64,000 nucleotides of DNA from an uncultured Chloroflexia bacterium (GCA_963724635.1 CAVRVI010000001.1:16678-80677), one strand, 5' to 3'; counted from the stretch's first letter, positions 3,625-23,956 are shown. Numbers and translations: made by a program. The notes: a model not told the origin generated them from the sequence alone.

Positions 3625-3812
3625 GATCTGCGTTTGCTGCCCGCGAACGATATCGGCCGGAACGCCGCGCTGGATGCCTCCCATGCGTCATTACGTGGCG
3701 TCCACGACGCGCGACGTCCCTTTTCGAGCGAACATCGAGAGGGGAACTCCGCCCGGCGAGGCAGATCGGGTCGTGCTCGACCTGAAATCGTTCGCTGCGC
3801 GCGAACACCCTT
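3625..3812 (-). repeat. Copy A of a ~190-bp dispersed three-palindrome element
   Basis: GTTYGCT-N3-MGCGAAC copies at 3632-3648, ~3717-3733 (degenerate) and 3790-3806; reverse complement aligns to 23680-23865. Confidence 0.7.
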
Positions 3813-3978
3813 CACCCGCTCGCCGCGGGGCGACCAAGGCGTCCGCCCAGCCGCGAAAACTAAAGACCCGGAGCGCATCGAGATGCGGCTATCGCCAGAT
3901 GTGCCGTTGCGCCCGGGCAACGAACCTGCCGGGTGGGGGCACGAGCAGCGTGCCACGGATCCTGGGAGGGATGGACCG

Positions 3979-4590
3979 ATGAGACCGCCTCGCCGTCTGG
4001 CGACTTTGGGCACGTTTGGCACGTTGGCCGTCGTTGCGATCGTCACGTATGGCTGTTCCGCCGGCGGATCGGGCGCCAGCGCGGGAGCCGACACCGCGGC
4101 TTCCGCGGCGCCCGCCGCAGCCACGACGCCCGCACCGACCACCGCGCCATCGCCGACCCTGGCGCCGACCGCGACCCCCACACCAGAGCCGACCGCGACG
4201 CCCGAACCGACCCCGGATATCGCAGCGATGGCCGACGCCTACGCCGCCAGTGCCAAGATCATGTTCGACACATCGTTCGCCCTCGACGAGCGGTTCGCCG
4301 ATGCGAAGACCTACGACGACTACTCCGCCCTCTACGCGGAAGGCGCCGAGATCTACGAAGCCGGTCGGAAGCGCACCGACGCCATGGAGCTGTTGCCGAC
4401 CCTGGCGGATGCCAAGGCCGACCTGGTCGCCGCATTGGCCATCGCCCGTGACGAGTTCCTGAAGCTCGCCGATGACCCCGACTACGACCCGAAGGACAAG
4501 CTCAAGGACGCCCAGAAGGACATCCGGGACGCGGGCGCGGAGATCCGCGAGGCCCTGGGTCTGCCACCGGCACCCACACCGAAGCCGTGA
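3979..4590 (+). CDS. Putative lipoprotein with a Pro/Thr/Ala linker and helical C-terminal domain
   Basis: MRPPRR...VVAIVTYGC lipobox-like signal, APT/PEPT low-complexity linker, RBS GGAGG. Confidence 0.75.
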   Translation: MRPPRRLATLGTFGTLAVVAIVTYGCSAGGSGASAGADTAASAAPAAATTPAPTTAPSPTLAPTATPTPEPTATPEPTPDIAAMADAYAASAKIMFDTSFALDERFADAKTYDDYSALYAEGAEIYEAGRKRTDAMELLPTLADAKADLVAALAIARDEFLKLADDPDYDPKDKLKDAQKDIRDAGAEIREALGLPPAPTPKP

Positions 4591-4631
4591 TGCCCTCGTA
4601 GGACGGCGGGCGGGCCCGTAGACTGCCCGCC

Positions 4632-6542
4632 ATGCCCGACACCGCCCTGGGACCCGGTCACGGCCACATCATCGTCTGCGGCACCGAGCATCTCGGCCTG
4701 CGCACGATCGACGAGCTGCGCCGGCGTGACGAAACCGTCGTCGCCATCGGCGCCACGGTGGACGCGGCCGATGCCCTGGCCGCCATGGACGTCCGGCTCG
4801 TGGTCGGCGAGGCGATCCAGCCGCGCACGCTCCGCGAGGCGGCGGTGGATCGGGCCGCGGCCATCGTGATGACCGGTGGCGACGACCTCGAGAACCTCAA
4901 CACCGCGCTCGCAGCCCAGGAACTCAACCCCGCCATCCGGGTCGTGATCCGCATGTTCGACACCGAGCTCGGCGGCCATATCCCCGAGCTCTTTCCCGAC
5001 GGCGTCGCCCTCTCGTCGTCGGCCCTGGCGGCACCCGGGTTCGTGTCCGCCGCCATCGATGGCGAAACCGGCGGTCGATTCGACCTTGCCGGACGCGTGC
5101 TGAGCGCCCGGACGTCCGCCGATGCCGCGCGCGGCACCCGATCCGTACCGCTCGCCCGGCTGCTCCCCGACCGCTCGGTGGAGATGCTCCCGAGCGCCGC
5201 GACGACTGACCCGAACTTGATCCTCATCGACGTCGCGCTGCCGGGTACCCTCGATGATGCTGCTCTCCCCGCCACGGCGGACGCCTCCGTCAGCGGCCTC
5301 GTCCAGGGCACCGTCGGCGCCTTCCGCGATCGACTGCGAGCCCCGGAGCAACGGCTCCTGCGGTTCGGCACGATCCTCGTGCTGCTTGCCGTCGTCTCGG
5401 CGCTCTACTTCGAGTTCACCGCCGGACTCACGCCGCTCGATGCCGTCTCCTACGCGATCACCCTGCTCACGGGCGCAGCCTTGGCGACGACCATCGATGC
5501 GGCGACCGCCCCGGATGCGCTGCGGCTGTATTCGATCTTCCTGAGCCTCGTCGGGGCGGCCCTGGTCGCCATCGTCTATGCGTTCATCACCGATGCCCTG
5601 ATCCGCTCGCGTCTCCTCCAGACGCTGGGACGGCGCACGGTGCCCGGCAACATCCGTGACCACGTCGTCGTCGCCGGCCTGGGGGCCATCGGCTATCGGG
5701 TCGCCCTCCTGGTGCAGGCGCGCGGCGTGCCCGTCGTCATCGTGGAGAGCGAGGATGAAGGCCGGTTCGTGGCGGCGGCCCGGGCTGCCGGCATCCCGGT
5801 CGTCATCGGGGACGCGCGGCATCGCGAGGTGCTCACGGAAGTGCGTCTGGACCGCGCCCGCGCCCTCGTCTGTGCGACCTCGGACGACCTCGTCAACCTG
5901 TCGGCGGCGCTCAACGGCCGCTCCATCCGTCCCGACCTGCGTGTCGTGGTGCGGCTCTTCGACCCCGAGTTCGCGGTCCGCGTCCAGCGGGGCTTCGGCA
6001 TCCGCTTCACGCGGTCGGTCTCACAGCTGGCGGCCCCGGCGTTCGCGGCCGCCGCGACCCGGACCGAGGTGGTCGCCACGGTCCCGGTGGGCGATCGACG
6101 CATGGCCCTGTTCGCTCGACTCAAGGTCCCGAGTGGCTCGGCGCTCGAGGGCCGGCTCGCCATGTCGCTGGATACCGAGGGCGCCCTCCGGGTCCTCGCC
6201 GTGGCCGATCCGGGGACCGACGAAGCCCGTTGGGACATCCCCGCAGAGGAAGTCCTCGACGCCGACGAGGAGGTCGTCGTGGCCGCCACACGTGCCGGGC
6301 TCGCCGAGTTGCTGCACCTTGCCTCGATCCCGGCGGGGACGGCGCCGACGATCGCGAACCTGCCGCCGGCGGGCGGCCACGCACGGTTGCTGCCGTTCGA
6401 CGCCCAGGAGGCGGTCGCGCTCGTCCGCCGCAACGCCGGCCGCGTGATCGGGGCGATGCCCCCGCCCATCGGCGGGAAGCGGCCCGGTACGCCGGCCGTC
6501 ACGCCCTCGCAGGCCACGCCCGACAACCCCAGCGATCCCTGA
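4632..6542 (+). CDS. TrkA/RCK NAD-binding protein with two RCK_N domains flanking a channel-like membrane segment
   Basis: HIIVCGTEHLG and HVVVAGLGAIG Rossmann motifs; hydrophobic segments between them; RCK_C-like C-terminus. Confidence 0.85.
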   Translation: MPDTALGPGHGHIIVCGTEHLGLRTIDELRRRDETVVAIGATVDAADALAAMDVRLVVGEAIQPRTLREAAVDRAAAIVMTGGDDLENLNTALAAQELNPAIRVVIRMFDTELGGHIPELFPDGVALSSSALAAPGFVSAAIDGETGGRFDLAGRVLSARTSADAARGTRSVPLARLLPDRSVEMLPSAATTDPNLILIDVALPGTLDDAALPATADASVSGLVQGTVGAFRDRLRAPEQRLLRFGTILVLLAVVSALYFEFTAGLTPLDAVSYAITLLTGAALATTIDAATAPDALRLYSIFLSLVGAALVAIVYAFITDALIRSRLLQTLGRRTVPGNIRDHVVVAGLGAIGYRVALLVQARGVPVVIVESEDEGRFVAAARAAGIPVVIGDARHREVLTEVRLDRARALVCATSDDLVNLSAALNGRSIRPDLRVVVRLFDPEFAVRVQRGFGIRFTRSVSQLAAPAFAAAATRTEVVATVPVGDRRMALFARLKVPSGSALEGRLAMSLDTEGALRVLAVADPGTDEARWDIPAEEVLDADEEVVVAATRAGLAELLHLASIPAGTAPTIANLPPAGGHARLLPFDAQEAVALVRRNAGRVIGAMPPPIGGKRPGTPAVTPSQATPDNPSDP

Positions 6543-6563
6543 GCCCAGCCCGGGGCGCGGCGG

Positions 6564-8082
6564 TCAGCTCGGCTGGTTGTCGATCTGGGCGCGCTGGAGC
6601 CGGCCCGAGAAGTCGACGTAGATCGACTTCCACTCGGTGTAGGTGTCGATGGCGACGTGGCCTGCCTCGCGGTGGCCGTTGCCGGTCTCCTTCCAGCCCC
6701 CGAACGGCAGGTGCGTCTCGGCGCCGGTCGTGCCGGCATTCACGTAGACGATGCCCGTCTCGAAGTCGCGCATCGCCCGGAAGGCCAGGTTCACGTCGCG
6801 CGTGAAGATCGATGAGGAGAGCCCGTAGCGGGTCTGATTGAGGGCCAGCATCGCAGCCCCGTAGTCCTCGACCGCGATGACCGAGAGGACCGGGCCGAAG
6901 ATCTCCTCCTGGCCGATGCGGTCCATCGCCCCGACCTGACTGAAGATCGTGGGCTCGAAGAAGTGGCCGTTGGCCAGGCCATCGCCCGTCGCGCGACCGC
7001 CGCCCGTCACCAGCTCTCCCTCCCCACGCCCGATATCGATGTACGACGCGACCTTGTCGAGGGCGCCGGCGTTGATGAGCGGCCCCACATCGACCGTCTC
7101 ATCGAGCCCGGATCCGAGGCGGAGCTTGCGGGCGCGCGCCTCGAGACGCTCCAGCAGCGCGTCCTGGACCGAGCGCTCCACGATGACGCGGGAAGCGGCC
7201 GTGCAGCGCTGGCCGGTCGTCCCGAACGCGCTCCACAGGATCCCGTCGGTGGCGAGGTCCAGGTCCGCGTCGGCGAGCACGACCACGCCGTTCTTGCCCC
7301 CGAGCTCCAGCGACAGGCGCTTGAGCCTGGCGCCGGTCTTGGCCGCGATGGACCGGCCGGTCGTGGACGACCCCGTGAACGAGATGACCCCGACATCCGG
7401 GGACTCCACGATCGCATCGCCGACTTCGCTGCCGGTGCCGGTCACGAGGTTCACGACGCCTGCGGGGAACCCCGCCTCGGCCATGAGCTCCACGAGCAGC
7501 GTCGCGCAGAGCGGCGTGTCGCTGGCCGGCTTGAAGACCACGGTATTGCCGGTCACGAGCGCCGGCATCATCTTCCAGCACGGGATGGCCATCGGGAAGT
7601 TCCAGGGCGTGATGATCCCCGCGATCCCGATGGGCTGGCGGATGCTCATCGCCCACTTGTCCGGCAGCTCGGACGGCACGGTGTCGCCGAACATCCGACG
7701 CCCCTCGCCGGCCATCAGGTACGCGATGTCGATGCCTTCCTGGACGTCGCCACGGGCTTCGGACAGCACCTTGCCCATCTCGCGAGTCATGGCTCGCGCG
7801 AGGCGCTCCTTGTGGCGCGCCATGAGTTCGGCGAACGCGTACAGGATCTCGCCGCGCCTGGGGGCCGGCGTCCGGCGCCACATCGGACCGGCGGTCTCAG
7901 CAGCACGGATGGCCATCGCGACGTCGGCGGCGGTCCCTTGCTGGAACCGACCGACCACGTCGCGCGTGTCGGCCGGGTTGCGGCTCTCGAAGGTGGCGCC
8001 GCTCGTCGGAATCGCACCAGTCGCCGGCGATGAAGTGACGGTAGGTCGTGATCTCGACCGCGGGCTCGGCGGTATCGGTCAT
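6564..8082 (-). CDS. Aldehyde dehydrogenase (indel near 8010)
   Basis: [36 protein letters not shown]; N-terminus MTDTAEP...HFIAGDW in another frame. Confidence 0.93.
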
Positions 8083-8129
8083 GCCGCCGAGTGTAGCGGC
8101 GGGCGTGTCGGGCGGAGCCGGGTCGCCGC

Positions 8130-9360
8130 TCAGACCCGCTCGACCGCCATGGCGACCGAGCCGCCACCGCCCAGGCACAGCGTGGCGAGCCCGTAGCGGC
8201 CCTCGCGTCGTTGCGAGCTCGTGGAGGAGGGTCGCGACGATCCGGGCGCCGCTCGCACCGATCGGGTGGCCCAGGGCGATCGCGCCGCCGTTGACGTTGA
8301 CCCGGCCCCAGTCGAAGCCGAGCGCCCGGCCATCGGCCAGCGTCTGGGCGGCGAAGGCCTCATTGATCTCGATGAGGTCGAAGGCCTCGATCGGAAGCTC
8401 GATCCGGTCCAGCAGGCGCTTGACGCCCTCCACCGGGGCGAGGAACAGCCACTTGGGCGCCACCTCGGCCTGGGCGTAGCCGACGATGCGGGCCAGCGGC
8501 TTGAGGCCGAGCCGTTCCACGGCCCGCTCGCTCGCGACCAGGGTCGCCGCCGCGCCGTCCGTGATGCCGGGCGCGTTGCCGGCGGTGACCGTCCCGGTCG
8601 TGGCGTCACCGCGGTCCTCGCCGTCCGGAAGGGCGAAGGCCGGCTTGAGTCGCGCGAGGGCTTCCGCGGTGGAGTCGCGCCGCGGGTTCTCGTCCTCGGT
8701 GACGATGGTCTCGCGGCCCTTGGCGTCGCGGACGGTCACCGGCGCCATCTCGGCGTCGAATCGCCCGGCGTCGATCGCCGCGATCGCCTTCTGGTGGCTG
8801 GCGAGTGCGAAGGCGTCCTGGTCCTCGCGGCTCACATGGTCGCTGATCGCGACGCGCTCCGCGTGGGTGCCCATGTGGCAATCCTCGATCGCGCACCACA
8901 GGCCATCGGCGACCGTCGAGTCGACGAGCGGGGCGTTGCCCAGGCGAAGCCCGAAGCGGGCGCCATGCAGCAGGTAGGGCGCGCCGTTCATCGATTCCAT
9001 GCCGCCCGCGATGACGAGGTCGGCATCGCCGGCACGGATCTCGGCGGCCGCGAGCATGATCGCCTTGAGCCCGGAGCCACAGACCCGATTGATGGTCGTC
9101 GCGCTCGTGCTGTCGGGGAGGCCCGCCTTGAGGGCCGCCTGGCGAGCCGGAGCCTGGCCGGCCCCCGCCTGCAGGACCTGGCCCATGAGCACGTCGTCCA
9201 CGGCCGTCGTCGCGGGATCGAGGCCCGCCCGTTCGACGGCGGCGCGGATGGCGACCCCGCCGAGCTCGGTCGCCGCGACCGTGCTCAAGGCACCACCGAA
9301 CTTGCCGATCGGCGTCCGTGCCGCGCTGACGATGAAGGTCTGACCGTTGGGCTGCTGCAT
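8130..9360 (-). CDS. Acetyl-CoA C-acyltransferase (thiolase; indel near 8215)
   Basis: [50 protein letters not shown]. Confidence 0.93.
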
Positions 9361-9410
9361 GGCGATGAGTCTACCGCCGGCCCGCCGGTGTGAGGTCCAG
9401 CCCACCGGTG

Positions 9411-10570
9411 TCAGGCCCGGCGCACGCCCGCGCGCTTCAGCGTCTCGCCGGCCACGATCTCGCGGTGGATCTGGTTCGTGCCCTCGTAGATCTGGGCGCC
9501 CTTGGCATCGCGCATCAGCCGCTCGATGCCCGTCTCGCGCGAGTAGCCGGTCGCCCCGAACAGCTGGACGGCGTCGGTCGCGACGCGCATCGCCGTGTCG
9601 GAGGCCGTCCATTTCGCGAGCGACGACGCCTCGGCGATCGACTCGCCGCGATCCTTGGCCGCGGCAGCACTGCGCGTGAGTGCCCGCGCCGCCGCCACGT
9701 CGCGGGTCATCTCGGCGAGCATGAAGCGCAGGCCCTGCTGGTCGGCGAGCGGCGCCCCGAACGCCGACCGCTCGCCGAGATACGCGCGCCGCGGCTTCCA
9801 CGCCGGACCGCGCCAGCCCCACGCACGCGGCCGCGATCGAGATGCGCCCCTCGCCCAGGGCGGACAGGGCGATCTTGTAGCCCTCGCCCTCGGCGCCCAG
9901 CCGGTTCGCGGCGGGGACCTCGCAGCCCTCGAAGATCAGTTCCGCGGCCGGGCAGGCCCGGATCCCCATCTTGCGTTCGTGCGCCCCGAACCGGAACCCG
10001 GCCATCCCCTTCTCGACGAGGAATGCCGTGATCCCGCGCGACCCGGCCTCGGGATCCAGCGTCGCGAAGACGAGGTAGCGGTCAGCCTCGGGGGCGTTGG
10101 AGATCCAGATCTTGGTCCCCGTGAGTCGATAGCCGCCGTCGACTCGCTCCGCACGCGTCCGGATCGCGGCCGCGTCGGAGCCGGCGTGGGGTTCGGTCAA
10201 CGCGAACGCCCCGAGCGCGTCACCGGCCAGCATCGCCGGCAGCCAGCGCGCCCGCTGCTCGTCCGTGCCCCAGGTCACGACCGGGTACTGCGAGAGGATG
10301 TGGACGGACAGCGATACGGCCATCGCCATGTCCACTGCGCCCAGCTCCTCCATCACCAGCGTCCAGCCGAGGTACGAGAACCCGGCACCCCCGACCGTCC
10401 GCCGGGAACGGCGCGGCCGTCAGCCCCAGCTCGCCCATCGCCGCGAACAGGGACCGGTCGTAGCGCTCTGCCTCGTCGCGCTCGATGGCACCGGGCGCCA
10501 CCTCGCGCTGGGCGAACTCGCGGGCCGTCGTCTCGAGCAGCCGTTCCTCGTCGGTCAGGGGCCAGCTCAC
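9411..10570 (-). CDS. Acyl-CoA dehydrogenase, short-chain type (indels near 9785 and 10400)
   Basis: FALTEPHAGSDAA, GTKIWISN, KMGIRA, GRISIAA, RDAKGAQIYEGTNQI. Confidence 0.9.
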
Positions 10571-10577
10571 GATCGGA

Positions 10578-11445
10578 TCAGCCCCGCGGGTAGGTGTAGA
10601 AGCCGCGCCCGGTCTTCTGGCCCAGGTGCCCGGCGGCGACGAGTTCCTCGAGGACGCGCGGCGGCCGGATCTGCTCCTGGCTCAGGCCATCCTCGAGCAC
10701 GCGGATGATGCCGAGACAGACGTCCAGGCCGATGAAGTCGGCGAGCTCCAGCGGGCCCATCGGGTGATTGAGGCCGACCCGCGCCCCGGCATCGATGTCC
10801 TCGGCGGAGCCGACGCCCTGCTCGAAGGCGCGCATCGACTCGATGAGGAACGGCATGAGGATCCGGTTCACGATGAATCCCGGGCGGTCGGCCGAGACGA
10901 TGACCTGCTTGTCGAGCTCCGACGGCGACCCCCCGAACGGTCTCGACCGTCTCGTCGGCCGTCTCGTTGGCGCGGATCAGCTCGATGAGCGGCATCACCG
11001 GCACCGGGCTGAAGAAGTGCATGCCGATGAACCGCTTGCGCCGCGTCCGTTCGACGGCCTCCGCCAATCGATGGATCGCGATCGAGCTCGTGTTCGTGGC
11101 GAAGATCGCCTCGCCTGGCGCCAGGCGGTCGATGGCGCGCCAGACATCGTGCTTGACCTTGAGGTCCTCGAATACGGCCTCGATCACGAGGTCCGCGTCG
11201 CGGGTGTCGGCGAGGTCGGCGGTGATCTGGATCCGCTCGAGCGTCGCGTCGCGATCCGCGACGGAGAGCCGGCCCTTGTCGAGCGCTCGTTGCAGGTTGC
11301 CGGCGATCCGCTCGCGGCCGGCCTCGGCGCGGGCCAGGTCCGGTTCGTACAGGGTCACGTCCTTGCCCACCGCGGCATGGACCTGGGCGATGCCATGGCC
11401 CATCATCCCGGCGCCGACGACGAAGACGCGCTGGATCGACTGCAT
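10578..11445 (-). CDS. hbd: 3-hydroxybutyryl-CoA dehydrogenase (indel near 10925)
   Basis: VVGAGMMGHGIA, IEAVFEDL, ATNTSS, GMHFFSPVP, NHPMGPLELADFIGLD. Confidence 0.9.
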
Positions 11446-11512
11446 GCCCGAAGTGTAGGCCGGGCCGGGCGCGCGCCGAGGCCTGTGCCGTGCCGGGCCT
11501 GCGGCAGCCCTC

Positions 11513-11529
11513 GGCACATAACGTGTGCC
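11513..11529. promoter_or_regulatory. Possible operator palindrome upstream of the hbd-acd-thiolase genes
   Basis: GGCACA-TAACG-TGTGCC in the intergenic gap. Confidence 0.3.
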
Positions 11530-11573
11530 AACCTCGACTCGGGCGGCCGTTTGCAGTGACGAGACCTGCCCCG

Positions 11574-12800
11574 TCAGGCCTCGGCGACCGGCGCCGCGGC
11601 ACGTCCATCATCGTCAACGACCGCCGCCGCAGCGCGATCGTACCGGCGCCCATCGCCGCGACCGCGGCCGACAGCAGGAACGCGGCCGGGAACCCGCTCG
11701 CATCGACCACGACGCCCAGCACCGCCGGCGCCACCCCGAACGACAGGTCCAGGAACGCGCTCGTCGTCCCGACGACCGAGCCGCGCTCCGTCTCGTCCAC
11801 GCGCGACACGGCAACGGCGATCAGCGCCGGGAACATGAACGCGATCCCGACCGCAAAGATCGCCGTCCCGATGAGCAGCCCCGCCTCCCCCGGCACGATC
11901 CCGATGAAGGCCAGCCCGATGGCCGTCACGGTCAGTGCCGCTCCCGCCAGGCGAGCCGGCCCCATCCGATCGGGCAGCGACGCGAACGCGATGCGCAGGA
12001 CCACGACGATGATCGCGTACAGCGCCAGGGGCAGCCCGGCCGTCGACATCCCCACGTCGGTCGCCACCAGGGCGACGAACGCGAAGAACCCCGCCATCCC
12101 CCACGCGCCGGTGAGGACCAGGAGTCCCGGCAGGACGCCGGCCGGGTGGAACAGGCGTCCGCGCGGTCGCGGTCCGTCCCCGGCGGCCAGCACGCCCGGC
12201 GCCGACTCGCGCACGAACACGGCGAGCACGGTCGCCAAGACGGCCATCGCGGCCGCCGCCATCCAGACGGCGTCATAACCGGCCGCGGCCAGCACCGTCT
12301 CGCCGATGAACGGACCGACGGCCAGTCCGAGGTAGACCGACAACGACCCCAGGTTGATCGCCTCACCGCGCCGTTCCGGTGGCGCAAGATCGGTGATGGT
12401 CGCGAGCGCGGCGACGAAGAAGAACGCCTCCCCGATGCCGAGCAGCGAGCGCACCACCACGAACGCGGGCAGCGTCGTGGCCGCGAGGTGGGCGACCAGG
12501 GCGACGATGGTGATGACCCCGCCCAGGAGCAACAACGGACGACGCCCGAACCGATCGGACGCCCAGCCCACGACCGGGCGCAGCGCAAGGGCTGCGATCG
12601 AGAACGCGCCGATGCTCAGGCCAACGCCGGTCACGTCCGCCCCGAGCGGTCCCGCGGCGAACCGCGTCGCCACGGGGAGCACCGTCCCGCCCGCGGTGAA
12701 GAACGCCAGGGCTGCCGCGCAGACCGCCAGGAACGCGGGCGTCAGGAGTCGGCGGCGCCGCCATCGATCCGTCCTCGGCGGCCGCCACGCGCCCGCTCAC
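11574..12800 (-). CDS. MFS transporter (indels near both ends)
   Basis: GWASDRFGRR MFS motif A, about 12 hydrophobic segments; GTG overlaps the meaB stop. Confidence 0.88.
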
Positions 12801-13812: not shown

Positions 13813-13813
13813 G

Positions 13814-14218
13814 TCAGTCGCGCGGTCGCGCGTTGGTCCGCAGGAACTCGGCGACGGACGCGATCGTGGTACCCGGCCCGAAGACCGCCGCGACACCGGC
13901 CGCCTTGAGGGCCGGGACATCGTCGTCGGGGATGATCCCGCCGACCGTCACGAGGACGTCGCCCATGCCCTGCTCGCCGAGGAGCTTGGTGATGCGTGGC
14001 ACGAGCGTCATGTGGGCGCCCGACAGGATGGATAGCCCGACCACGTCGACGTCCTCCTGGAGGGCGGCCGTGGCGACCATCTCGGGCGTCTGGCGGAGGC
14101 CCGTGTAGACGACCTCGAACCCTTCGTCCCGCAGGCCACGGGCGAGCACCTTGGCGCCCCGGTCGTGGCCGTCGAGGCCGGGCTTGGCGATGAGGACCTT
14201 GAGCGGTCGGTCGGACAT
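13814..14218 (-). CDS. Acyl-CoA mutase small (cobalamin-binding) subunit
   Basis: [15 protein letters not shown] (DxHxxG), [14 protein letters not shown]. Confidence 0.93.
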
Positions 14219-14276
14219 GTCGCGTATCGTACTGCCGACCGACCGCCCTCCGGTCACGGTTCCGGGAGCCGCGGCG

Positions 14277-15093
14277 CTAGGCGATGGCCCGCCCGAACGA
14301 GCGCGCCGCCAGCCACACGGCGAACACAGCGAGCACGCTGGTGATGGTGACCCCGATCATGATCTCGGGGTTGCCCCAGTCCCCGTTGAACAACGCGCGT
14401 GCCGCGTCCACCACATGGGTCAGCGGATTGAGCGTGCTCAGGAACTGGAGCCAATCGGGGGCCAGCGCCATCGGCAACAGGATGCCCGACAGCAGGAGCA
14501 GGGGCATCGCGACCGCGTTCACGAGCGGAGCGAAGGCGTCCTCGCTGCGCAGGGTCAGCGCCCCGACATACGACAGCGGGGCCATGACGAGCCCGACCAG
14601 AACCAGCAACGCGAGGACCACCGGGATCCCGGCCGCCTCGACATCGAGTCCCAGCGGGATCGCCAGGGCGATCAGCAGGATCGCCTGGAAGAGCAGGATC
14701 GACGATGTCCCGCAGCGACCGACCCAGCAGCATCGCGGTCCGGCTCATCGGGGTGACCCGCATCCGCTCGATGACCCCGCTGCGCAGCTCGGCGATGAGG
14801 CCGAATCCGACGAAGGCCGTGCCGAAGACCGCGACCTGGATGAGCAGGCCGGGCACGAACCAGTTGAAGGCGTTCGTGCCGGTCCCGGCCGCCTGCGTGG
14901 CGCCTTCCAGCAATGGCCCGAACAGGAACAGGTACAGCAGCGGCAGCATCATCCCGAACAGGATCCACGTCGGCTGACGGATGGTCAGCCAGAGCGATCG
15001 ATGGAAGATGAGCCAGGTATCGCGGAGCGTCTTCACGATGGGATGCCTCGTGGTGGAGATGCGAACGTCGGGGACGGCGACGACGGCGCTCAT
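14277..15093 (-). CDS. ABC-2 exporter permease, DrrB-like (indel near 14700)
   Basis: [43 protein letters not shown]. Confidence 0.88.
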
Positions 15094-16070
15094 GCCGCGG
15101 CCTCGTCGCGCAGCGACCGGCCGGTCTGACGCAGGAAGACGTCATCCAGGCTGGGCCGGGTGAGCGAGATCGAGCGCGCCGTGAGGCCCGCCGCGTCCAG
15201 GAGTCGAAGGACCTGCGGGACGGCGGTCTCGCCGTGGTCCACGTACAGGCGGATGAGCTCCTCTTCGGCATTCGCCTCGCGGACATAGGGCTGCTCGCGG
15301 AGCGTCGCGAGCACCACCTCGCGGTCGCCATCGACGCCGACGGTGACGACATCGCCCGCGACCTGCCGCTTCAGCTCGTCCGCGGTGCCCTCGGCGACGA
15401 TCCTGCCGTGGTCGATGATGGCGAGCCGATCGGCGAGGGCGTCGGCCTCCTCGAGGTAGTGCGTGGTCAGGAAGACGGTCGTCCCGAGCTCGCGGAGTCC
15501 GCGGATCTCGTCCCACATCCGGGCGCGCGCCTGGGGATCCAGGCCCGTCGTCGGCTCGTCGAGGAACAGCACCGCCGGTCGATGGACGATGCCCAGGCCG
15601 ATGTCCAGCCGGCGGCGCATCCCGCCCGAGTACGTGCCGGTGTACCGGTCCGCGGCCGATTCCAGGTCCAGCGCGGCCAGGACCTCCTTGGCCCGAGCCT
15701 GCGCGCCCGCCCGGTCGAACCCGTACAGCCGGGCCTGGAGGATCAGCTCCCCGCGGCCCGTCTCAGCCGGATCGGTGGAGCCGCCCTGGGGCACGTACCC
15801 GATCCGCTCCCGGACGAGCGCCGGCTGGCGACGCAGGTCCGCTCCCGCGACCGTCGCGGTCCCGCTGGTGGGCGGCAACAAGGTCGCGAGCATCCGGAGC
15901 GTCGTCGTCTTCCCTGCGCCGTTCGGCCCGAGGAACCCGAAGATCTCCCCCGCCCCCACTCGCAGGTCGACGCCGGCGACCGCCTCGACCACGCTGCCGC
16001 GACCCCTGAAGGTGCGACGCAGGTCGTTGGTCTCGATGATCGGGTCGCTCGACCCGCTCAGACCGTCCAT
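15090..16070 (-). CDS. ABC exporter ATP-binding subunit, DrrA-like
   Basis: GPNGAGKT, YSGGMRRR, LFLDEPTTGLD, TTHY. Confidence 0.93.
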   Translation of the reverse strand: MDGLSGSSDPIIETNDLRRTFRGRGSVVEAVAGVDLRVGAGEIFGFLGPNGAGKTTTLRMLATLLPPTSGTATVAGADLRRQPALVRERIGYVPQGGSTDPAETGRGELILQARLYGFDRAGAQARAKEVLAALDLESAADRYTGTYSGGMRRRLDIGLGIVHRPAVLFLDEPTTGLDPQARARMWDEIRGLRELGTTVFLTTHYLEEADALADRLAIIDHGRIVAEGTADELKRQVAGDVVTVGVDGDREVVLATLREQPYVREANAEEELIRLYVDHGETAVPQVLRLLDAAGLTARSISLTRPSLDDVFLRQTGRSLRDEAAA

Positions 16071-16135
16071 CCGATGACCTCCAGTGCCCTATCCTGCTCC
16101 CAGCGACACTTGCGCCGTTCAACGTTATCGGGCAT

Positions 16136-16154
16136 TATCTGCTCAGCGCAGATA
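16136..16154. promoter_or_regulatory. Candidate MarR operator between the divergent exporter and marR
   Basis: TATCTGC-TCAGC-GCAGATA palindrome. Confidence 0.55.
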
Positions 16155-16181
16155 TTTACCGACGCAGGAGCACCTGTCAAC

Positions 16182-17268
16182 ATGGATCGCGATCAGGCCG
16201 TCGAATCGGTCGTCAAGGCCCTTCGCCGGGTCAACTTCCAGGGCTCGATCTTCGGGCAGTCCGTCGCGCTGCGGCTCGGCCTCTCGGAGTCGGACATCGA
16301 CGCCCTCGAGCTGCTGCTGGACACCGGCGCCTCCACCGCGGGCAAGCTCGCCGAGGTCCTCGGCATGACGACAGGCGCGGTGACGCGCGTCATCGACCGG
16401 CTGGAGCAAGCGGGCTACGTGCGCCGGACGACCGACCCGGCCGATCGGCGGCGGGTCATCATCGAGGCCGTCCCCGAGCGCGCCCAAACCCTCGAATCGA
16501 TGCTCGGCGCGCTCGAGCGCGCCGCTCAGGACGAGGTCGACCAGTACACCCCCGAGCAGCTGGCGCTGATCAGCCGAGTTCCTGGGGCGTATGGCCGACC
16601 TGACCCAGACCGAGGCTGCGCGGCTGCGGACGACCGGGGACGATCCCACGGTGGCGGGTGGGCCGGCGGAACACGCTGCCCCACTGGGCGGCCTCACGGA
16701 GGCTCGGCTCACGTTCCGGGCCGGTGTCCAGGACCTGCGCATCCGCGCGGGTCGCGACACGCCCGACCTGTATCGCGGCCAATTCGACGGGGCGACGCCG
16801 CAGATCCGCGTCCGCGACGGCCGGGTGCTCGTGCAGTACCGCGGCATCCCGTTCGACTGGCGGAAGCGGACCGCCACGATCGCGCTCAACCCGGCCATCC
16901 CGTGGACGGTCGAGGTCCAGGGCGGAGTCAACCGCCTCGAGGCCGACCTCCGGGAGTTCGACCTGCGGCGCTTCGAGTTCAGCGGTGGTTCCGAGCGCTT
17001 CCAGCTGGAGCTCGGCCAGCCCAGCGGACCGGTGCCGGTGCGACTGGTCGGCGGGTCACGCACGGTCCGCATCGAGCGACCCCGTGGCGTGCCGGCGTCG
17101 ATCCACCTCCAGGGCGGCGTGAACCTGCTCGAGATCGATGGCAAGGTGCTCGGGCAGAAGGGCGGGGATCTCCGGTTCTCGGCCGGTCAGCCACAGGGCG
17201 CCCAGGATCAATTCGATATCGAGATCGTCGGCGGGACGCGGGCCGTCACGGTCGTCGAGCAGGGCTGA
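16182..17268 (+). CDS. MarR-family regulator fused to a beta-rich C-terminal domain (indel near 16575)
   Basis: GAVTRVIDRLEQAGYVRRTTDPADRRRV winged helix; removing one C restores LALISEFLGRMADL into the 16591-17268 frame. Confidence 0.8.
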
Positions 17269-17297
17269 GCGCGGCGCGGCGGACGTGCCGCCGCTGG

Positions 17298-17987
17298 TCA
17301 GGCCTCGGGGGCGCGCCGGGCGAGGTGGTCCAGGAACTCGGAGCGGGTGCGATCGCGGGTCCGGAACAACCCAAGCACGGACGACGTGGTCATCACCATC
17401 CCGGGCTTGCGGACCCCGCGCATGACCGCGCAGAGGTGGGTGGCCTCCATGACCACGCCCACGCCCTGGGGCTGCAGGTTGTCCTGCAGGAACTCGGCGA
17501 TCTGCTGGGTGAGGCGCTCCTGGACCTGCAGCCGCCGCGCGTACATCTCCACGATCCGCGGGATCTTGGACAGCCCGATGACCCGGCCGCGCGGGATGTA
17601 CGCGACCGCCGCCGTCCCGAAGAACGGCAGCAGGTGGTGTTCGCACAGCGAGTAGAACGGGATGTCCTTGACGATGACCATCTCGCTGTAGGCCACGTCG
17701 AAGACGGCCCCGTTGATGAGTCGCTCGGGGTCCACGTGGTAGCCGGCGGTCAGTTCCGTGTACATCCGGTGCACGCGTTCGGGCGTCCCCTGGAGACCCT
17801 GGCGATCCGGGTCCTCGCCGATCTCCACGAGGATCTGGTGGACCGCGGCCTCCACGCGGCCGTTGCCGTCGTGCCGGCCGGCCCCTTCGATGGCGGTCGG
17901 GGCGCTGGCCGGATCCTCGCCGATCTCGTTCTCGATCTCGTCGACGATGGCGCGGACGTGGCTGGGCAGGTCGGTCGAGCTGGACAT
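17298..17987 (-). CDS. folE: GTP cyclohydrolase I
   Basis: [40 protein letters not shown]. Confidence 0.95.
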
Positions 17988-18019
17988 GGGCCGGATGGTA
18001 CGCCGAAACCTCGCGGGGC

Positions 18020-19141
18020 CTAGACGACGCTGCCACCTGGCGTGAACCCGACGGCCGGCAGCGGCTCGAACGGGCGGCCCTCTGCGCCGCGCAGCCACGC
18101 CCGGGCATTCTCGCCGAGCGATGGGCGGTGGTAGCCGCCCTCCTGGAGGACCACGAGACGGCGACCCAGCGCCGCGACGCGCCGGCCGACCTCGTGGTAG
18201 ACATCGGTGGTCAGTGCGAACGTCGCCGATCGGATCCAGCCCGTACGTGTCGAACCCGAGCGACACGACGACGACCGGTACCGGGCACGGCGGCGATCGC
18301 CTCGCAGGCGCGATCGACTGCCACGAGGTAGTCCGCGTTGGTCGCGCCCGCTGGGCAGCGGGAGGTTCAGGTTCTCGCCGCTCCCCTCCCCTTCCCCCGT
18401 CTCGTCCTCGCGACCCAGGAAATACGGGTACTGCCGGTCGGGGTGGGCGTGGATGGAGACGTAGCGCACGTCACCGCGACGCCAGAAGATCTGCTGCGAC
18501 CCGTTGCCGTGGTGGTAATCGACGTCGAGGATCGCGACCCGCTCGCCGGTCCGGGCCGTGATCGCCTCGGCCGCGATGGCCGCGTTGTTGAAGAAGCAGT
18601 AGCCGCCGTACATGGAGCGTGCGGCGTGGTGACCGGGTGGCCGGCACAGTCCGTAGGCCGCCTGCGCGCCGCCATCGAGGACGAGGTCGACGGTGGTCAG
18701 CGCCACGTCCACGGCACCGCGCGCGGCCACGTACGTGCCGGCGACCAGGGGCGCGGCCGAATCGAGGCCCCAGAAACCGGCCCGGCCGCCGATGAACTCC
18801 GGCTCGCGCACGTGGCGCGCGACCGCGTCGTCGGTCATCCCCTCGAACATCGACCGGTTGGGGTACGTGTCCGCCGTCAGGAATGGTCGCGGGACTCCCT
18901 GCCGCCGGACCTCGGACCAGGCTTCCTCGAGGAATCGGACGAGACCAGGATCGTGGACTGCGGTGATCGGCGCCTCCCCGTGCTCGGTGGACTCCGATCG
19001 CGGGAACCCGCCGTCGGCATCGAGGGCGAGGCGGATGATCTCCGCCCGCTCGGCGACCTCGTTGGCGGGCACCAGGACGCCCATGAACGTCTCGTGGGTG
19101 ATGTCGTGACCGAGATGCGACGGCGAGTAGACGACCTGCAT
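18020..19141 (-). CDS. Histone-deacetylase-family protein, acetylpolyamine amidohydrolase-like (compensating indels ~18240-18350)
   Basis: [34 protein letters not shown]. Confidence 0.88.
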
Positions 19142-19151
19142 CGGGACCTCG

Positions 19152-20069
19152 TCAGGTGGGAATGGCCAGGATCGCGGCGGTGACGTCCTCGGGACGGTAG
19201 CGCATCAGGTTGTGCCCCACCGAGTCGAAGGACACCACCGGGATCGATGACCGACCGGCCGCGACCCGCGCGGCGGAGGCGGCGGCGAGTGACGCGGCCC
19301 GCGAGCCCTCCGCGTCGTCGCGGGCCAGGAGCGCGGAGACCGCGGCCGGGGCGGCGATCAGGCGCGCGATCGGGTCGTAGGTGAACATGGCGCGGACGCA
19401 CGCCTCTAGGGCATGCGGGCGCGTGGCCGGGACCACCCGCCCGGCGTGGGTCTCGACGACCGTCGCGCGGGCCGCCACGTCCTGGTCCTCGTCCCAGCTG
19501 GAGGGGTCGAAGCCCTTGCGGTCGGCCAGGAAGGCGCGCAGTGAACGCATGACCTCGGGCGGTTCGTCGAGGCCGCGCAGGAACTCGTCGGCATCCATGC
19601 CGAGGGACGCTTCCGCCGCCTCCCAGCCCCCATCGACGAGGACGACGCCAGCACAGCGCTCGCCCAGGGCCGCGGCGGCGAGGACCGCGACCATCGCGCC
19701 GAATCCGTGGCCGGCGAGCACGACCCGTGTCCGCCCGGCATCCAGCAATCCCGAGCCCTCCGCGACGGCGATCGCGTCCTCGGCCAGGATCGGGAGGTCA
19801 TAGGCCCCGTCCTCGGTCGGGGCGTCGGACAGGCCATGACCGCGGAGGTCCATCGCGACGGTCGCCCGCGCATGCTCGCCCGCCGCCAGCCGACGCGCGA
19901 CCGGCGCCCAGATCCAGGCGGTCTGCGACAGGCCGTGGATGAGCAGAGCGCCCGGCGGCGTGGACCCCGCCACGACGGCACCCGGCGTGGCGCCCCCGCC
20001 CCAATCGAGGAAGTGGATCCGGTCGCCCGGGTCCACGGTCACCACATAGCCAGCCGGTCCATCCGTCAC
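19152..20069 (-). CDS. Alpha/beta-hydrolase-fold protein
   Basis: LIHGLS, DLRGHGLSD; the nucleophile elbow reads GHGFG rather than GxSxG. Confidence 0.8.
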   Translation of the reverse strand: MTDGPAGYVVTVDPGDRIHFLDWGGGATPGAVVAGSTPPGALLIHGLSQTAWIWAPVARRLAAGEHARATVAMDLRGHGLSDAPTEDGAYDLPILAEDAIAVAEGSGLLDAGRTRVVLAGHGFGAMVAVLAAAALGERCAGVVLVDGGWEAAEASLGMDADEFLRGLDEPPEVMRSLRAFLADRKGFDPSSWDEDQDVAARATVVETHAGRVVPATRPHALEACVRAMFTYDPIARLIAAPAAVSALLARDDAEGSRAASLAAASAARVAAGRSSIPVVSFDSVGHNLMRYRPEDVTAAILAIPT

Positions 20070-20088
20070 GCCCGTAGGATACGGACGC

Positions 20089-20508
20089 ATGACCAAGCGC
20101 CGTCGCGGTTCGCGGACCGCCCGACTCCAGCCACGCCGCCCCGCTCGCCACCGTCCGTTCGAGACGCTCGTCGACGAGGCGCTCGCGACCATCCCGATGC
20201 CGTTCGCGGCCGCCCTTGACGAGGTCGCCATCGTCATCGCGGACGAGCCGACACCCGACCAGCTGGGCGAGAACGAGGTCCCGTCCGACGACGCGCTCTA
20301 CGGGCTCTACGAGGGCGTGCCCCGGACCGAGTGGGGCGCCGACTGGGCCGCGATGCCCAACCGCATCACGCTGTTCCGGCTCCCCCTCGAAGCGGACTTC
20401 CCGGACCCGGATGAACTGGCCGACGAGGTCTGGATCACCGTGGTCCATGAGCTCGCCCACCATCTGGGCATCGATGACGACCGGCTCCACGAGCTCGGCG
20501 TGGACTGA
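20089..20508 (+). CDS. Zincin-like metallopeptidase family protein
   Basis: LYGLYEGVP, NRITLFR, TVVHELAHHLGIDD (HExxH). Confidence 0.88.
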   Translation: MTKRRRGSRTARLQPRRPARHRPFETLVDEALATIPMPFAAALDEVAIVIADEPTPDQLGENEVPSDDALYGLYEGVPRTEWGADWAAMPNRITLFRLPLEADFPDPDELADEVWITVVHELAHHLGIDDDRLHELGVD

Positions 20509-20523
20509 TCGAGGTTCGATCCG

Positions 20524-21615
20524 TCAGGCGGTGAACGCCGCCACCGCGATCGCCAGGATCCCGGCGCCGATGGCGAACCCGGCCAGCATCGGGCGGGTCC
20601 AGGTCCGAAACCGCCGGACGCCGGGACGAGGTGGGGCATCCGGGTCGTCACGACCGCCGGGCCGCACGTGCTCGAGCCCGAGCGTCGCGTGCGTCAGTCC
20701 GACGAACATCACGACCTGCGGCGCGACGGTGATCCCGATCACGGTGTAGATGAGCGTGCCGAACGCGAACACGGCCGCCACGATGCCGCCGGTCATCACG
20801 GCCAGCCCCAGCGGGCCGGACTCCACGCCGAGACCCAGGGCGTCCAGCACCCGGATCGCGACGTCCAGCCCGACCGAGATCCCGAGGTAGATCAGCAGGA
20901 TGGCCACGGTCTCGAACGTGACGATCAGCGCGGCCGCCAGCTTGCGGGCCCCGAAGACGCGGAAGGAGCGGCGGACGGCCTCGACGGGATCGACGTCGCC
21001 CAGGACGACGCCCGCGAGCACGTAGGCGAACGGTGACCCGAGCGTGGCGGTGACGAGGGTCGTCGTGATGACCGAGAGATCGGCCGCCTCGCCGAGGATC
21101 GGCATCACGATCTCACCCACGACCGCCTGCGCGATCGCCAGCGGGATGGCCACGATGATCGCGACCAGCACGGCCGACCAGAAGACCCGCCGTGAGCGGG
21201 CGAGCGCTTGGCGCGGGGTGATGGGCCGGCCGGCCATCTGGCCACCCAGCAGGCCGGCCGCGATCGTCCGGCTCTCCACGGCAGCGACGATCAGGCCGGC
21301 GAACGCGAGGACCGCGGCGAGCGACAGCGCCACCCCGCCACCGCCCAGCAGAGCGGCCTCCATCTGTTCGGGGGTGCGATCGACCGCCACGACCTCGATG
21401 GCCCACGTCGCCAAGGCCAGCGGTCCCATCGTCCCCAGCACGATCGAGCCGATGTAGAACGAGGCCCGTCGCATGTCCTGACTGGACCGACCGAGCAGAT
21501 CGAAGGCGACCGACAGGAGGCGTCGGGTGGTGGCGAGTTCGATGGATGCGGCGGGCGATGGCGGCGCGGGCGGCGCCGGGACGACCGGCTCGGCTGTGGC
21601 GGGTTCCTCCGTCAC
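20524..21615 (-). CDS. Polytopic membrane protein of unknown function
   Basis: Multiple hydrophobic helices; GTG overlaps the upstream dehydratase stop. Confidence 0.7.
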   Translation of the reverse strand: MTEEPATAEPVVPAPPAPPSPAASIELATTRRLLSVAFDLLGRSSQDMRRASFYIGSIVLGTMGPLALATWAIEVVAVDRTPEQMEAALLGGGGVALSLAAVLAFAGLIVAAVESRTIAAGLLGGQMAGRPITPRQALARSRRVFWSAVLVAIIVAIPLAIAQAVVGEIVMPILGEAADLSVITTTLVTATLGSPFAYVLAGVVLGDVDPVEAVRRSFRVFGARKLAAALIVTFETVAILLIYLGISVGLDVAIRVLDALGLGVESGPLGLAVMTGGIVAAVFAFGTLIYTVIGITVAPQVVMFVGLTHATLGLEHVRPGGRDDPDAPPRPGVRRFRTWTRPMLAGFAIGAGILAIAVAAFTA

Positions 21616-22672
21616 GCCCCCGACCCGGGTAGCGACCCCGCGGCGGCCAACAGTTCGCCGAGTCGATCGATCGACACGTTCCCGCCGGACAGGACGACCG
21701 CGACGCGCTCGCCGTCCCGATATGGGATCCGACCCGCCAACACGGCCGCCAGGGCCGCGGCACCGGCGGGCTCCAGCACCTGCTTGAGGCGCTCCAGCCC
21801 GAACCGCAGGCCGGCGAGGATCGTGGCTGTCGTCGAGGAGCGCGATGTCTTCGAGATGGTGCTGCGCCATCGCCAGGGTCCAGGCCCCGGCGAATGGAGC
21901 GCCCAGGCCGTCGGCGACGGTCGTCGGCTGGATCGTGATGACCTGGCCAGCCGCCATCGCCAGGGTCATCGCCTGTGAACCGACCGGCTCCACGCCGTAG
22001 ATGCGTGCCTGTGGTCGCATCGCGTGGACGGCCGCGGCCACGCCGGCGATCAGCCCGCCACCGCCCACCCCGACCACGACGACATCGACCTCCGGCAGGT
22101 CCTCCACGAGCTCGAGGCCCGCGCCGCCGTGGCCGGCGATCACGGCCGGATCGTCGAACGGATGGACGAAGGTCAGACCCTCGGCATCCCGGATCCGGCC
22201 CATCTCCGCGAAGGTCTCGCCCACATGTGCGCCATGCAGGACGACCCGCGCGCCGTAGCCCAGGCAGGCGTCCACCTTCGACTGGACCGCATTCGCCGGC
22301 ATGACCACGGTCATGGGCACGCCGGCGGCCCGGCCGGCCCACGCATAGGCCTGACCGGCATTGCCGGCGGACAGCGTGATGGCGCCACGTTCCCGGGCGT
22401 CGGGCGGCAGGGTCGTGATGCGGTTGGTCATGCCGCGCGACTTGAACGACCCGGTCTTCTGGAGGTGTTCCGCCTTCAGGTACAGGCGACCGTCGCCCGG
22501 CCGCGTTCCGGTCGCCCGTGCCGCCCAATCGGCCGCCGTGGTCGACGTCAGCAGCGGCGTCCGATGGACCAGTCCGACCAGCCGTGCGCTCGCGGCCTGG
22601 ACCTCGGAGAACGGGACGAGGTGATCAGCGGCGCCAAGATCGGGGACGATCGGGGGTCGAGCGGCTGGACAT
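21612..22672 (-). CDS. PLP-dependent threonine/serine dehydratase family protein (indel near 21820; start approximate)
   Basis: HRTPLL, KAEHLQKTGSFKSRG, SAGNAG, GVGGGGLI, EPAGAAALAA, SGGNV. Confidence 0.88.
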
Positions 22673-22704
22673 CGCGCGGAGTATCGCACCCGTACCATGC
22701 GGCC

Positions 22705-23612
22705 ATGGTTCGCTTCCGACCCGGCACCCTGGCCAATTCCCGCCTCGCGTTCGACCTCTTCGTCCCCACCATCGAGGACCTGGGGCGACGCACTGGTGGC
22801 GCCGCGAACTCGACGCCCGGGACCATGGACGACGCCTGGGCGATCCGTCGGCCGATGTTCGAGCATCTCGGTGCCACCGCCGATGCCTGGTGGTTCGCCG
22901 AGGACGAGGCGACGGGCCGGGCCATCGGCTACGCGCGATCGATCCTCCGGGACGGCGTCCGCGAGTTGACCGAGTTCTTCGTCCTCCCCGACGCGCAGGG
23001 CGCCGGCGTCGGTCGCGAGCTGCTCGCCCGGGCGTTCCCCGCGGTCGGTGCCCGCCACCGGGCGATCGTCGCGACCATCGATGCGCGCGCGATCGCGCGC
23101 TACACGCAGACCGGTCTGGACGGCAAGGTGCCGATCGTGTCGGTGGAGGGCGCCCCACGGGACATCACGCTCGCGACGGACCTGACCCGCGAGGCGATCG
23201 ATCCGGGCGGACCGCCCTCGACGAGTTGGGCGCCATCGATCGGGCCGTGCTCGACTTCCGCCGCGACGCCGACCACTTGTGGCTGGCGTCACAGCGGGCC
23301 GGCTGGCTGTACCGCCGCGACGGTCGCGCCGTGGCCTACGGGTACCACCACGCCCGGCCGGCGGGCGGTGGGCCGTTCGCGGCGCTGGAGGCGTCGGACG
23401 TGCCGGTCCTGTTGGCCGACGCCGAGCGGGCGGCCATCGCCGCGGGCCACGAGACGGTCACCTTCGACATGGCGTTGACGGCGCGGACGGGTTGGGACCA
23501 CCTGCTCGGCGGCGGCTACCGCGTGGATCCGTTCGTGATGCTGTTCTTCACGGATGGCCCCGTCGACGGCCTGGACCGCTACGTCCTGACCTCGCCGCCC
23601 TTCTTCGCCTGA
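22705..23612 (+). CDS. GNAT-family acetyltransferase, double-domain (indel near 23215)
   Basis: EFFVLPDAQGAGVGRELL acetyl-CoA-binding motif. Confidence 0.8.
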
Positions 23613-23679
23613 AGCCGCCCGAGCCGCCGATCCCGGCCCGTAGCCGCGCGTTCTGCTGAGCCATCACCACGGACGTCCG

Positions 23680-23865
23680 CCAGGTCGTTCACTCGCAGCG
23701 AACGTTTTCGCATCGAGCGCGCACCGTCACGACCAGACTGGCGTCGTCACCATGATCTCGTTCGCTCGGAGCGAACGACAGGCGACCAGGGCGACCTGCA
23801 CGACACCGGATCCGACCCGGCGCGGCCCTCACCCCGAGATCGTTCGCTGGCGGCGACACGGGGGC
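23680..23865 (+). repeat. Copy B of the ~190-bp dispersed three-palindrome element
   Basis: GTTCRCT-N3-RGCG palindromes starting at 23687, 23760 and 23842; flanks homologous to copy A. Confidence 0.7.
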
Positions 23866-23920
23866 GGTCGATCCGTGTCGACGCGGTCGCCCTCAGGGGC
23901 GGCCAGAGAGCCCCAAGCAC

Positions 23921-23950: not shown

Positions 23951-23956
23951 CTCGTC

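Follow-up and report, generated by a model that had tools for sequence, protein, structure and literature searches.

What kind of element is represented by two similar intergenic regions, each carrying three spaced palindromes, in the genome of an uncultured Limnocylindrales bacterium (phylum Chloroflexota)? Both regions, termed copies A and B, lie within a 64,000-nt stretch of DNA (the window) that corresponds to C1:16678-80677 of a long-read metagenome-assembled genome (MAG), here called G000 (2.92 Mb, 21 contigs, 70% G+C). An earlier note made from the sequence of the window had considered an uncatalogued dispersed repeat family mobilized in trans, a multi-site protein-binding platform or a structured RNA. 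We find that both copies belong to a lineage-specific family of intergenic modules that contain no genes and occur in uncultured soil Chloroflexota (Candidatus Limnocylindrales), with at least 14 to 15 copies. There is a good chance that each module is a phased double-stranded DNA platform for a helix-turn-helix (HTH) dimer, within a repeat family that is insertion-polymorphic. The first two proposals of the note are supported and probably both true: there are at least 14 copies, sites are empty in one species and filled in another, and the palindromes are helically phased. Four points go beyond that note: the two-fold pseudo-symmetry of the module, its copy number, a second family beside copy A, and a spacing quantized by the helical repeat.

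Three-palindrome modules in the window and the genome

The palindromes of the two copies were located as follows, and the spacings agree with those of the earlier note.

23687 to 23858, no strand assigned: copy B, a family 1 module with palindromes at 23687-23703, 23760-23776 and 23842-23858, spaced by 73 and 82 bp
3632 to 3806, no strand assigned: copy A, a family 1 module with palindromes at 3790-3806, 3717-3733 (degenerate) and 3632-3648, spaced by 73 and 85 bp

The palindromes of copy B that start at 23687 (GTTCACTCGCAGCGAAC), 23760 (GTTCGCTCGGAGCGAAC) and 23842 (GTTCGCTGGCGGCGACA, degenerate) are 17 bp long and of the GTTCAC/GTTCGC type. Copy A was read on the minus strand, where its palindromes start at 3806, 3733 (the degenerate one) and 3648. 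The homology between the two regions, previously estimated by hand, was borne out by gapped blastn, which gave 111 identities in 177 nt (63%) and an E value of 8e-12 for the pair. Frame analysis using third-position GC content placed both copies in gaps and neither in a coding frame, as had been claimed. The pairwise identity of A and B is by itself modest, and it is the genome-wide picture that makes the finding significant. Because the MAG is incomplete (completeness 60.7%, CheckM-type) and has homopolymer errors, the copy counts given here are lower bounds and spacing differences of ±1 bp are not meaningful.

Exact GTTCGC-N5-GCGAAC palindromes occur 32 times in G000 versus 1.15 expected from hexamer frequencies (a 28-fold excess), and among hexamer stems with loop lengths of 3 to 9, GTTCGC alone is strongly enriched. 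All but three of these 32 exact sites fall within 14 clusters, each consisting of three palindromes when one or two mismatches are allowed. A fifteenth, partial copy is present at C10:9182. The search for further copies that the earlier note had proposed thus returned at least 14 modules, and family 1 as a whole comprises at least 45 sites arranged in triplets. We found no description of these repeats in the literature.

Such numbers bear on the possibility that A and B resemble each other by chance or through base composition (the genome has 70% G+C), or derive from a decayed protein-coding gene. The 63% identity of the pair is compatible with this reading. However, the 28-fold enrichment concerns this stem alone, 14 clusters share the same architecture, the design is kept across many MAGs, and there is no coding-frame signal over the modules. 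The clusters, the stem enrichment and the spacing phase described below refute the chance or coding explanation, to which we assign a negligible probability.

An alignment of 14 copies, in which left arms were compared with reverse-complemented right arms, revealed that the module is two-fold pseudo-symmetric. Specifically, two inverted arms of ~45 bp flank a central palindrome, and the module measures ~150-185 bp between its outer palindromes (typically ~175 bp). Reading inwards, the outer palindrome and its flanks conform to cGGT-GTTCGC-N5-GCGAAC-GAT(t)TCGG(n)TCGAAG, and the central palindrome bears the inner flank on both sides (ATCGTTCGC-N5-GCGAACGAT). The outer palindromes are nearly always intact, and 4-5 of the 14 copies have a degenerate central palindrome. 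The 5-nt palindrome centres are not conserved, and the spacer cores are unalignable (50.7% identity versus 48.2% for shuffled sequences; 231 pairs). Hence conservation is confined to the palindromes with the sequence immediately flanking them, and to how many helical turns separate one palindrome from the next. Copies A and B do read on opposite strands, as noted earlier, but their opposite orientation has little meaning because the module is two-fold pseudo-symmetric.

Frame analysis placed all G000 modules in non-coding gaps. The flanking genes are divergent in three cases, convergent in three and tandem in eight, which matches random expectation and indicates no bias relative to gene orientation. 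No protein family recurs beside the modules at 44 loci in several genomes, and G000 contains no solitary promoter-proximal copies of the palindrome. The random gene orientation and the lack of a recurring neighbour family indicate that modules are not operators of neighbouring genes.

Helical phasing and a probable double-stranded DNA function

We collected 100 centre-to-centre distances between palindromes from G000 family 1 (28), G000 family 2 (19; described below), two congeners (18) and other Limnocylindrales MAGs (35). The distances fall into classes of 61-62, 71-75, 81-85, 92-94 and 103-104 bp. When periods of 7-16 bp were scanned, the Rayleigh statistic peaked at 10.5-10.6 bp with R = 0.90, compared with a 99.9th percentile of 0.32 for the maximum R of uniformly drawn distances, and each of the four subsets alone gave R = 0.84-0.96. 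The helical repeat of B-DNA is ~10.4 bp, and the spacing classes correspond to 6 to 10 times this value; family 1 uses 6, 7 or 8 turns and its sister family up to 10. Spacers that are unconserved in sequence and yet fixed in length to whole turns suggest that the constraint acts on double-stranded DNA and keeps the sites on one face, and argue against an RNA or single-stranded DNA hairpin.

From these data we infer that the modules function as double-stranded DNA. The site is 17 bp long, and its 6-bp half-sites, one helical turn apart, leave the centre unconstrained, as is classic for operators bound by HTH dimers. On this view, three dimers of an HTH protein with sequence specificity would occupy the module on one helix face, and might come together in a looped or wrapped complex of higher order. 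The conserved palindromes and turn counts point to a defined three-dimer nucleoprotein particle that is open to reconstitution and structure determination.

The same evidence bears on the possibility that the modules are structured non-coding RNAs, or single-stranded DNA hairpins of the repetitive extragenic palindrome (REP)/REPIN type mobilized by a RAYT-like HUH enzyme. Each palindrome is able to form a hairpin of 6-9 bp and the arms can pair over a long range. Single-strand folds yield z-scores that are mostly negative (-0.1 to -6.7), so that stability exceeds that of shuffled sequences only moderately, and largely owing to the inverted arms. REPs, moreover, likewise lack target-site duplications. 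However, the RAYT/Y1 transposase family (PF01797), whose co-occurrence the earlier note had suggested checking, has no match in any of the 31 genus genomes, and six of 14 control genomes score with the same model. An Rfam search of the whole window at the gathering threshold returned only a tRNA at 3274-3345. The proposed covariation check, performed with RNAalifold on 14 copies, was uninformative: the stems are invariant within the genome, there is one compensatory pair and the covariation term is ~0. In addition, the modules are strand-symmetric, occur in every transcriptional context independently of flanking transcription, and have unconserved spacers whose 10.5-bp quantization has no basis in the function of an RNA or single-stranded DNA hairpin. 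Taken together, these observations disfavour the structured RNA of the earlier note, and we regard the RNA or hairpin explanation as very improbable.

Sister families, gain and loss

A pentamer-stem clustering screen of G000 uncovered one further family. Family 2 has the palindrome (C)ATGGC-N5-GCCAT(CGAT) and occupies ~11 loci as triplets or pairs with spacings of 62, 72, 83, 93 or 104 bp. The two families share the inner arm motif CGAT(a/t)TCGG(n)TCGAAG, which is too degenerate for use as a search key. They adjoin at six loci in G000, one of which is copy A:

3426 to 3605 (C1 20103-20282), no strand assigned: family 2 module adjoining copy A, with palindromes at 3426-3440, 3529-3543 and 3591-3605, spaced by 103 and 62 bp

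None of 40 related genomes contains an exact GTTCGC pair, which first suggested that the design is specific to one species. This suggestion was overturned by the discovery of other palindrome types, including the TTCAC type, and of GTTCGC families elsewhere in the Limnocylindrales. Two congeners with ~90% protein identity, G042 and G046, have the same architecture with (A/G)TTCAC-N5-GTGAA(C/T) palindromes, plus some TTCGC/TTCAC hybrids. In further Limnocylindrales MAGs there are GTTCGC triplets whose inner flank differs (GCGAAC-AAAnCG). The general half-site across types is ATCG + WTSSC. This natural series of matched site specificities in one architecture should be useful for the study of HTH-DNA recognition and co-evolution.

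Modules are insertion-polymorphic between species, as can be seen at a hotspot that lies between a conserved gene for a 538-aa protein and a downstream MFS gene, and whose length varies by genome. The hotspot is empty (38-56 bp) in seven MAGs. It spans 231 bp with one TTCAC module in G042, and the same module is present at the G046 locus. In two MAGs it is 435-442 bp long and contains two modules, one of the ATCGG type and one of the GATCGC type, and in G000 it holds a family 1 and a family 2 module. Types seen at this locus in other MAGs of the order are GATCGC-N5-GCGATC, GATGCC-N5-GGCATC and ATCGG-N5-CCGAT, and one further MAG has a GCACG-N5-CGTGC pair 73 bp apart upstream of the same gene. 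Also at this locus, many MAGs have a conserved GGTAGCATCC upstream of the MFS gene, 7-9 nt from its ATG (e.g. L049 3320-3331), which suggests a -10-like element with a leaderless or very short-leader mRNA.

The check for empty sites proposed in the earlier note was positive for copy B. The corresponding site in G042 is empty, with ~27 bp between the upstream stop codon and a conserved ArsR operator versus ~315 bp in G000. The additional DNA in G000 includes, besides the three palindromes, a segment on each side:

23613 to 23686, no strand assigned: extra 74 bp from the upstream stop codon to copy B, missing from the G042 empty site
23859 to 23904, no strand assigned: ~45 bp right of copy B, missing from the G042 empty site; the conserved ArsR operator/promoter TTGCGTGTTTGCGCAAACACTGATA comes next

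Copy B was inserted just upstream of this ArsR-type operator/promoter, and the 74 bp to its left are either part of the inserted DNA or a decayed older repeat. The operator/promoter itself (23905-23950) is palindromic, lies directly upstream of an ArsR-family gene (23921-24256) and is conserved with G042.

Small gene-less elements that differ in presence between species might be conventional miniature inverted-repeat transposable elements (MITEs), that is, internally deleted derivatives of DDE-type insertion sequences mobilized by a transposase that binds terminal inverted repeats. The modules have terminal inverted repeats in the form of their ~45-bp arms, are small, lack coding capacity and are present in multiple copies. 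However, target-site duplications, which the earlier note had proposed to look for, were found at no offset or length, and flanking direct repeats are not above background. The G000 assembly contains no multi-copy insertion sequence; a self-BLAST returned only a tuf duplication, contig overlaps and strain-variant contigs. Recent bursts from one master copy would not be expected to leave unalignable interiors between palindromes that are conserved and phased, and neither a third, central site nor helical quantization is a feature of MITEs. On this evidence a MITE origin appears improbable. The tuf duplication is a 1.2-kb sequence with 99% identity between its copies at C20:84115-85320 and C20:100710-101915, encoding EF-Tu beside tRNA genes, with one copy frameshifted.

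A 727-bp indel in G046 relative to G042 (L042 948-1674; G046:C1, ~1.532 Mb) comprises a gene for a 154-aa lipoprotein, a TTCAC module and an imperfect copy of ~42 bp derived from the 3′ end of a neighbouring HMG-CoA-lyase-like gene. It adjoins a GTTCAC-N11-GCGAAC sequence that is present in both congeners. Elsewhere, palindrome-plus-spacer units of 133 and 83 bp are tandemly duplicated in near-identical form at L045-L047 (G046:C1:2251702-2251921) and L210, which shows that unit duplication can enlarge modules.

Candidate partners and known systems

At the hotspot, L101 and L118 have insertions of ~1 kb with an XRE-nuclease-like gene and a MarR gene, the former of which led us to a family of genes termed HTH-nuclease. 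The encoded proteins combine an XRE HTH domain (PF01381) with a C-terminal domain whose conserved E..D..ExK residues are of the PD-(D/E)XK restriction-like kind. In an AlphaFold2 model (mean pLDDT 80), the N-terminal domain matches C.BclI, HipB and ClgR, with ClgR (3f51) superposing at ~0.8 Å over 57-59 residues at ~30% identity. The C-terminal domain of the model matches restriction-like endonuclease folds, with the R2 retrotransposon protein ranked first, followed by Upx. Searches with NCBIfam and PADLOC gave matches to these proteins only at the level of the HTH, and we found no description of an HTH-PD-(D/E)XK gene fusion in the literature.

Matches to this fast-diverging family occur in 26 of 31 genomes of the genus, at 0-10 copies per genome, and nearly all of the 80 best-matching loci in the genome collection belong to MAGs of Limnocylindrales or other Chloroflexota. 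G000 has at least five copies, all outside the window, of which two are frameshifted in agreement with homopolymer errors in the assembly:

C20:461739-462344: HTH-nuclease paralog
C20:335410-335922: HTH-nuclease paralog
C4:28255-28803: HTH-nuclease paralog
C6:23360-24098: HTH-nuclease paralog
C20:~216859-217583: HTH-nuclease paralog, divergent and frameshifted

The regions upstream of HTH-nuclease genes share a conserved module, GATAAGCG..GGTAAGCG..TGCTTGACT, and have palindromes of 5/6-N5-5/6 format that are specific to individual paralogs (GTTCC, GCCAC, CACGA, GCGCC, GATCGC and TTCAC). Between the palindromes and the promoter module, the upstream regions at L226 (1965-2080), L228, L246 and L235 also contain short tandem repeats with units of 12-13 bp (for example, CGCTCCGACGCGC or GGCTCGGCGG).

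Several arrangements connect such palindromes with these genes. In several MAGs, the genes of one subfamily are preceded or bracketed by GTTCC-N5-GGAAC pairs with a 104-bp spacing, and among 343 loci (~1.2 Mb) this palindrome is almost confined to that subfamily. Gene-less GTTCC copies are present elsewhere in the same genomes (nine sites on seven contigs in G002 and five sites in G041); for instance, a pair spaced by 105 bp separates a dehydrogenase gene from a convergent peptidase gene. A TTCAC module of G046 is located 176 bp upstream of an HTH-nuclease paralog. The G000 paralog at C20:216859 has a family 2 pair before it and a GATCGC/GCGAAC pair after it, the first member of which carries the family 1 inner flank.

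On balance we favour an overall explanation in which lineage-specific gene-less modules, read as double-stranded DNA platforms, are proposed to have HTH-nuclease proteins as partners. The modules would spread, or be lost, as insertable units, and the gene-less forms could be non-autonomous relatives of palindrome-bracketed HTH-nuclease cassettes. Taken on its own, the assignment of this gene family as the partner is possible and somewhat less probable than its opposite, and no cognate gene was found for GTTCGC. More tentative still is a specific model in which the modules and HTH-nuclease genes constitute an unrecognized class of bacterial selfish element. Here the protein would read phased palindromes that bracket its own gene, gene-less derivatives with two or three palindromes would be mobilized in trans, and a wrapped three-dimer synaptic complex would form on 13-16 turns. 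HTH-palindrome pairs would diversify rapidly into non-cross-reacting specificities (GTTCGC, CATGGC, TTCAC, GATCGC, GATGCC, GTTCC and others) within one order.

A number of observations weigh against this explanation. With regard to the partner, none of the five G000 paralogs has an exact family 1 palindrome upstream, and no family 1 palindrome lies within 1.5 kb of any of 11 paralog loci from three other genomes with GTTCGC, or within 1.2 kb of any of 80 further paralog loci. A paralog in G014 has a GATCGC palindrome upstream, yet the genome has no exact phased GATCGC pair, and thus a prediction failed. Adjacency of paralogs and modules is exceptional, and some cases may be due to chance or to orthologous synteny counted repeatedly. 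With regard to movement, mobility is deduced solely from presence or absence between species at ~90% protein identity. No defined ends of the modules were found, and long flank repeats are not above non-cognate controls. For short target-site duplications, no offset or length matches in more than five of 14 copies, and those matches are 2-mers only; a 16-bp duplication (about 42 bp when imperfect) was seen at a single G046 locus, within the complex 727-bp indel described above.

An alternative is that the host has an architectural or regulatory HTH protein, such as a ClgR-like XRE regulator or a nucleoid-organizing factor, for which the modules are the chromosomal sites. These sites would be selected by the host, unrelated to HTH-nuclease genes, and gained or lost through ordinary indels or recombination. 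The motif quoted for ClgR in Streptomyces is GTTCGC-5N-GCG, and the family 1 palindrome is identical to this published operator motif (PMC9775585). The strong phasing, the purifying selection on sites and not on spacers, and the lack of a cognate nuclease gene for GTTCGC also fit this alternative. However, modules are present between convergent genes, show no promoter bias and have no solitary promoter-proximal counterparts. Furthermore, palindrome types switch between congeners, several types coexist in one genome and different types are inserted at the same 40-bp intergenic site, all of which are hard to fit to a conserved host regulon. No ClgR equivalog was detected, as the NCBIfam ClgR model (NF041677) gave 16.5 bits versus a cut-off of 170 on the XRE protein(s) tested. 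We consider host sites unlikely. Compared with the ClgR operators of Actinobacteria (Streptomyces, Corynebacterium and Mycobacterium), the modules share the palindrome sequence and 6-N5-6 format, and the HTH of the candidate partner superposes on ClgR. They differ in not lying in clp or lon promoters, in not being single operators, in forming triplets regardless of gene orientation and in belonging to another phylum.

The outcome matters in either case. If the link to HTH-nuclease genes is true, the modules represent a new kind of mobile or selfish element with a new type of mobilizing enzyme; if it is false, they are candidate chromosome-organizing sites in Chloroflexota. Small dispersed repeats are well studied in proteobacteria (REPs and bacterial interspersed mosaic elements (BIMEs), Correia and ERIC), and to our knowledge uncultured soil phyla have hardly been explored for them.

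The closest known kind is the REP/BIME class of Enterobacteria and Pseudomonas, including REPINs. Like the modules, these repeats are extragenic and species-specific, consist of short palindromes in regularly spaced clusters of alternating orientation, and lack target-site duplications. BIMEs have known or proposed docking sites for proteins (gyrase and IHF), as is proposed here for the modules. In contrast, the modules have no RAYT/Y1 gene among the 31 genus genomes, are low in copy number (~15-25 per family), and comprise exactly three (or two) sites. Their loops are unconserved, their spacers are unconserved but helix-quantized, and several specificities occur in one architecture. MITEs with an internal protein site (Correia/NEMIS of Neisseria, ERIC/IRU and RUP) are likewise gene-less intergenic elements of 100-200 bp with inverted arms and insertion polymorphism. 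The modules differ from them in the lack of a target duplication, the unconserved interiors, the three identical HTH-type palindromes in phase, and the lack of a detected cognate DDE transposase.

Cooperative multi-operator complexes offer a further comparison. Ss-LrpB binds three 15-bp boxes at a 4-turn spacing, restriction-modification controller (C) proteins bind multiple operators, and resolvase res sites contain three dimer-binding subsites. By analogy, the modules may resemble these complexes in having three palindromes for dimers on one helix face over ~150-190 bp, with half-sites around a variable centre. Those systems appear to be single-locus control or recombination regions, whereas the modules are dispersed, with 6-10-turn spacing and at least 14 copies.

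Outside Chloroflexota, matches to the paired pattern are heterogeneous and include CRISPR-like arrays, simple hairpin repeats and Bacteroidales pairs. Many matches from other phyla have identical loops and flanks and regular periods, and on our reading of the sequences they appear to be CRISPR arrays or other tandem repeats. The Limnocylindrales triplets are unlike these, and differ from CRISPR arrays in their variable loops, inverted outer units and three units per locus. In four Bacteroidales MAGs (L136, L156, L206 and L207), an extended palindrome with variable centres, AAATCGTTCGCC-N3-GGCGAACGATTT, occurs in pairs 78 bp apart. Three haloarchaeal loci (L147, L177 and L190) carry pairs resembling GATCGTTCGC-N5-GCGAACGATC that are 63-64 bp apart.

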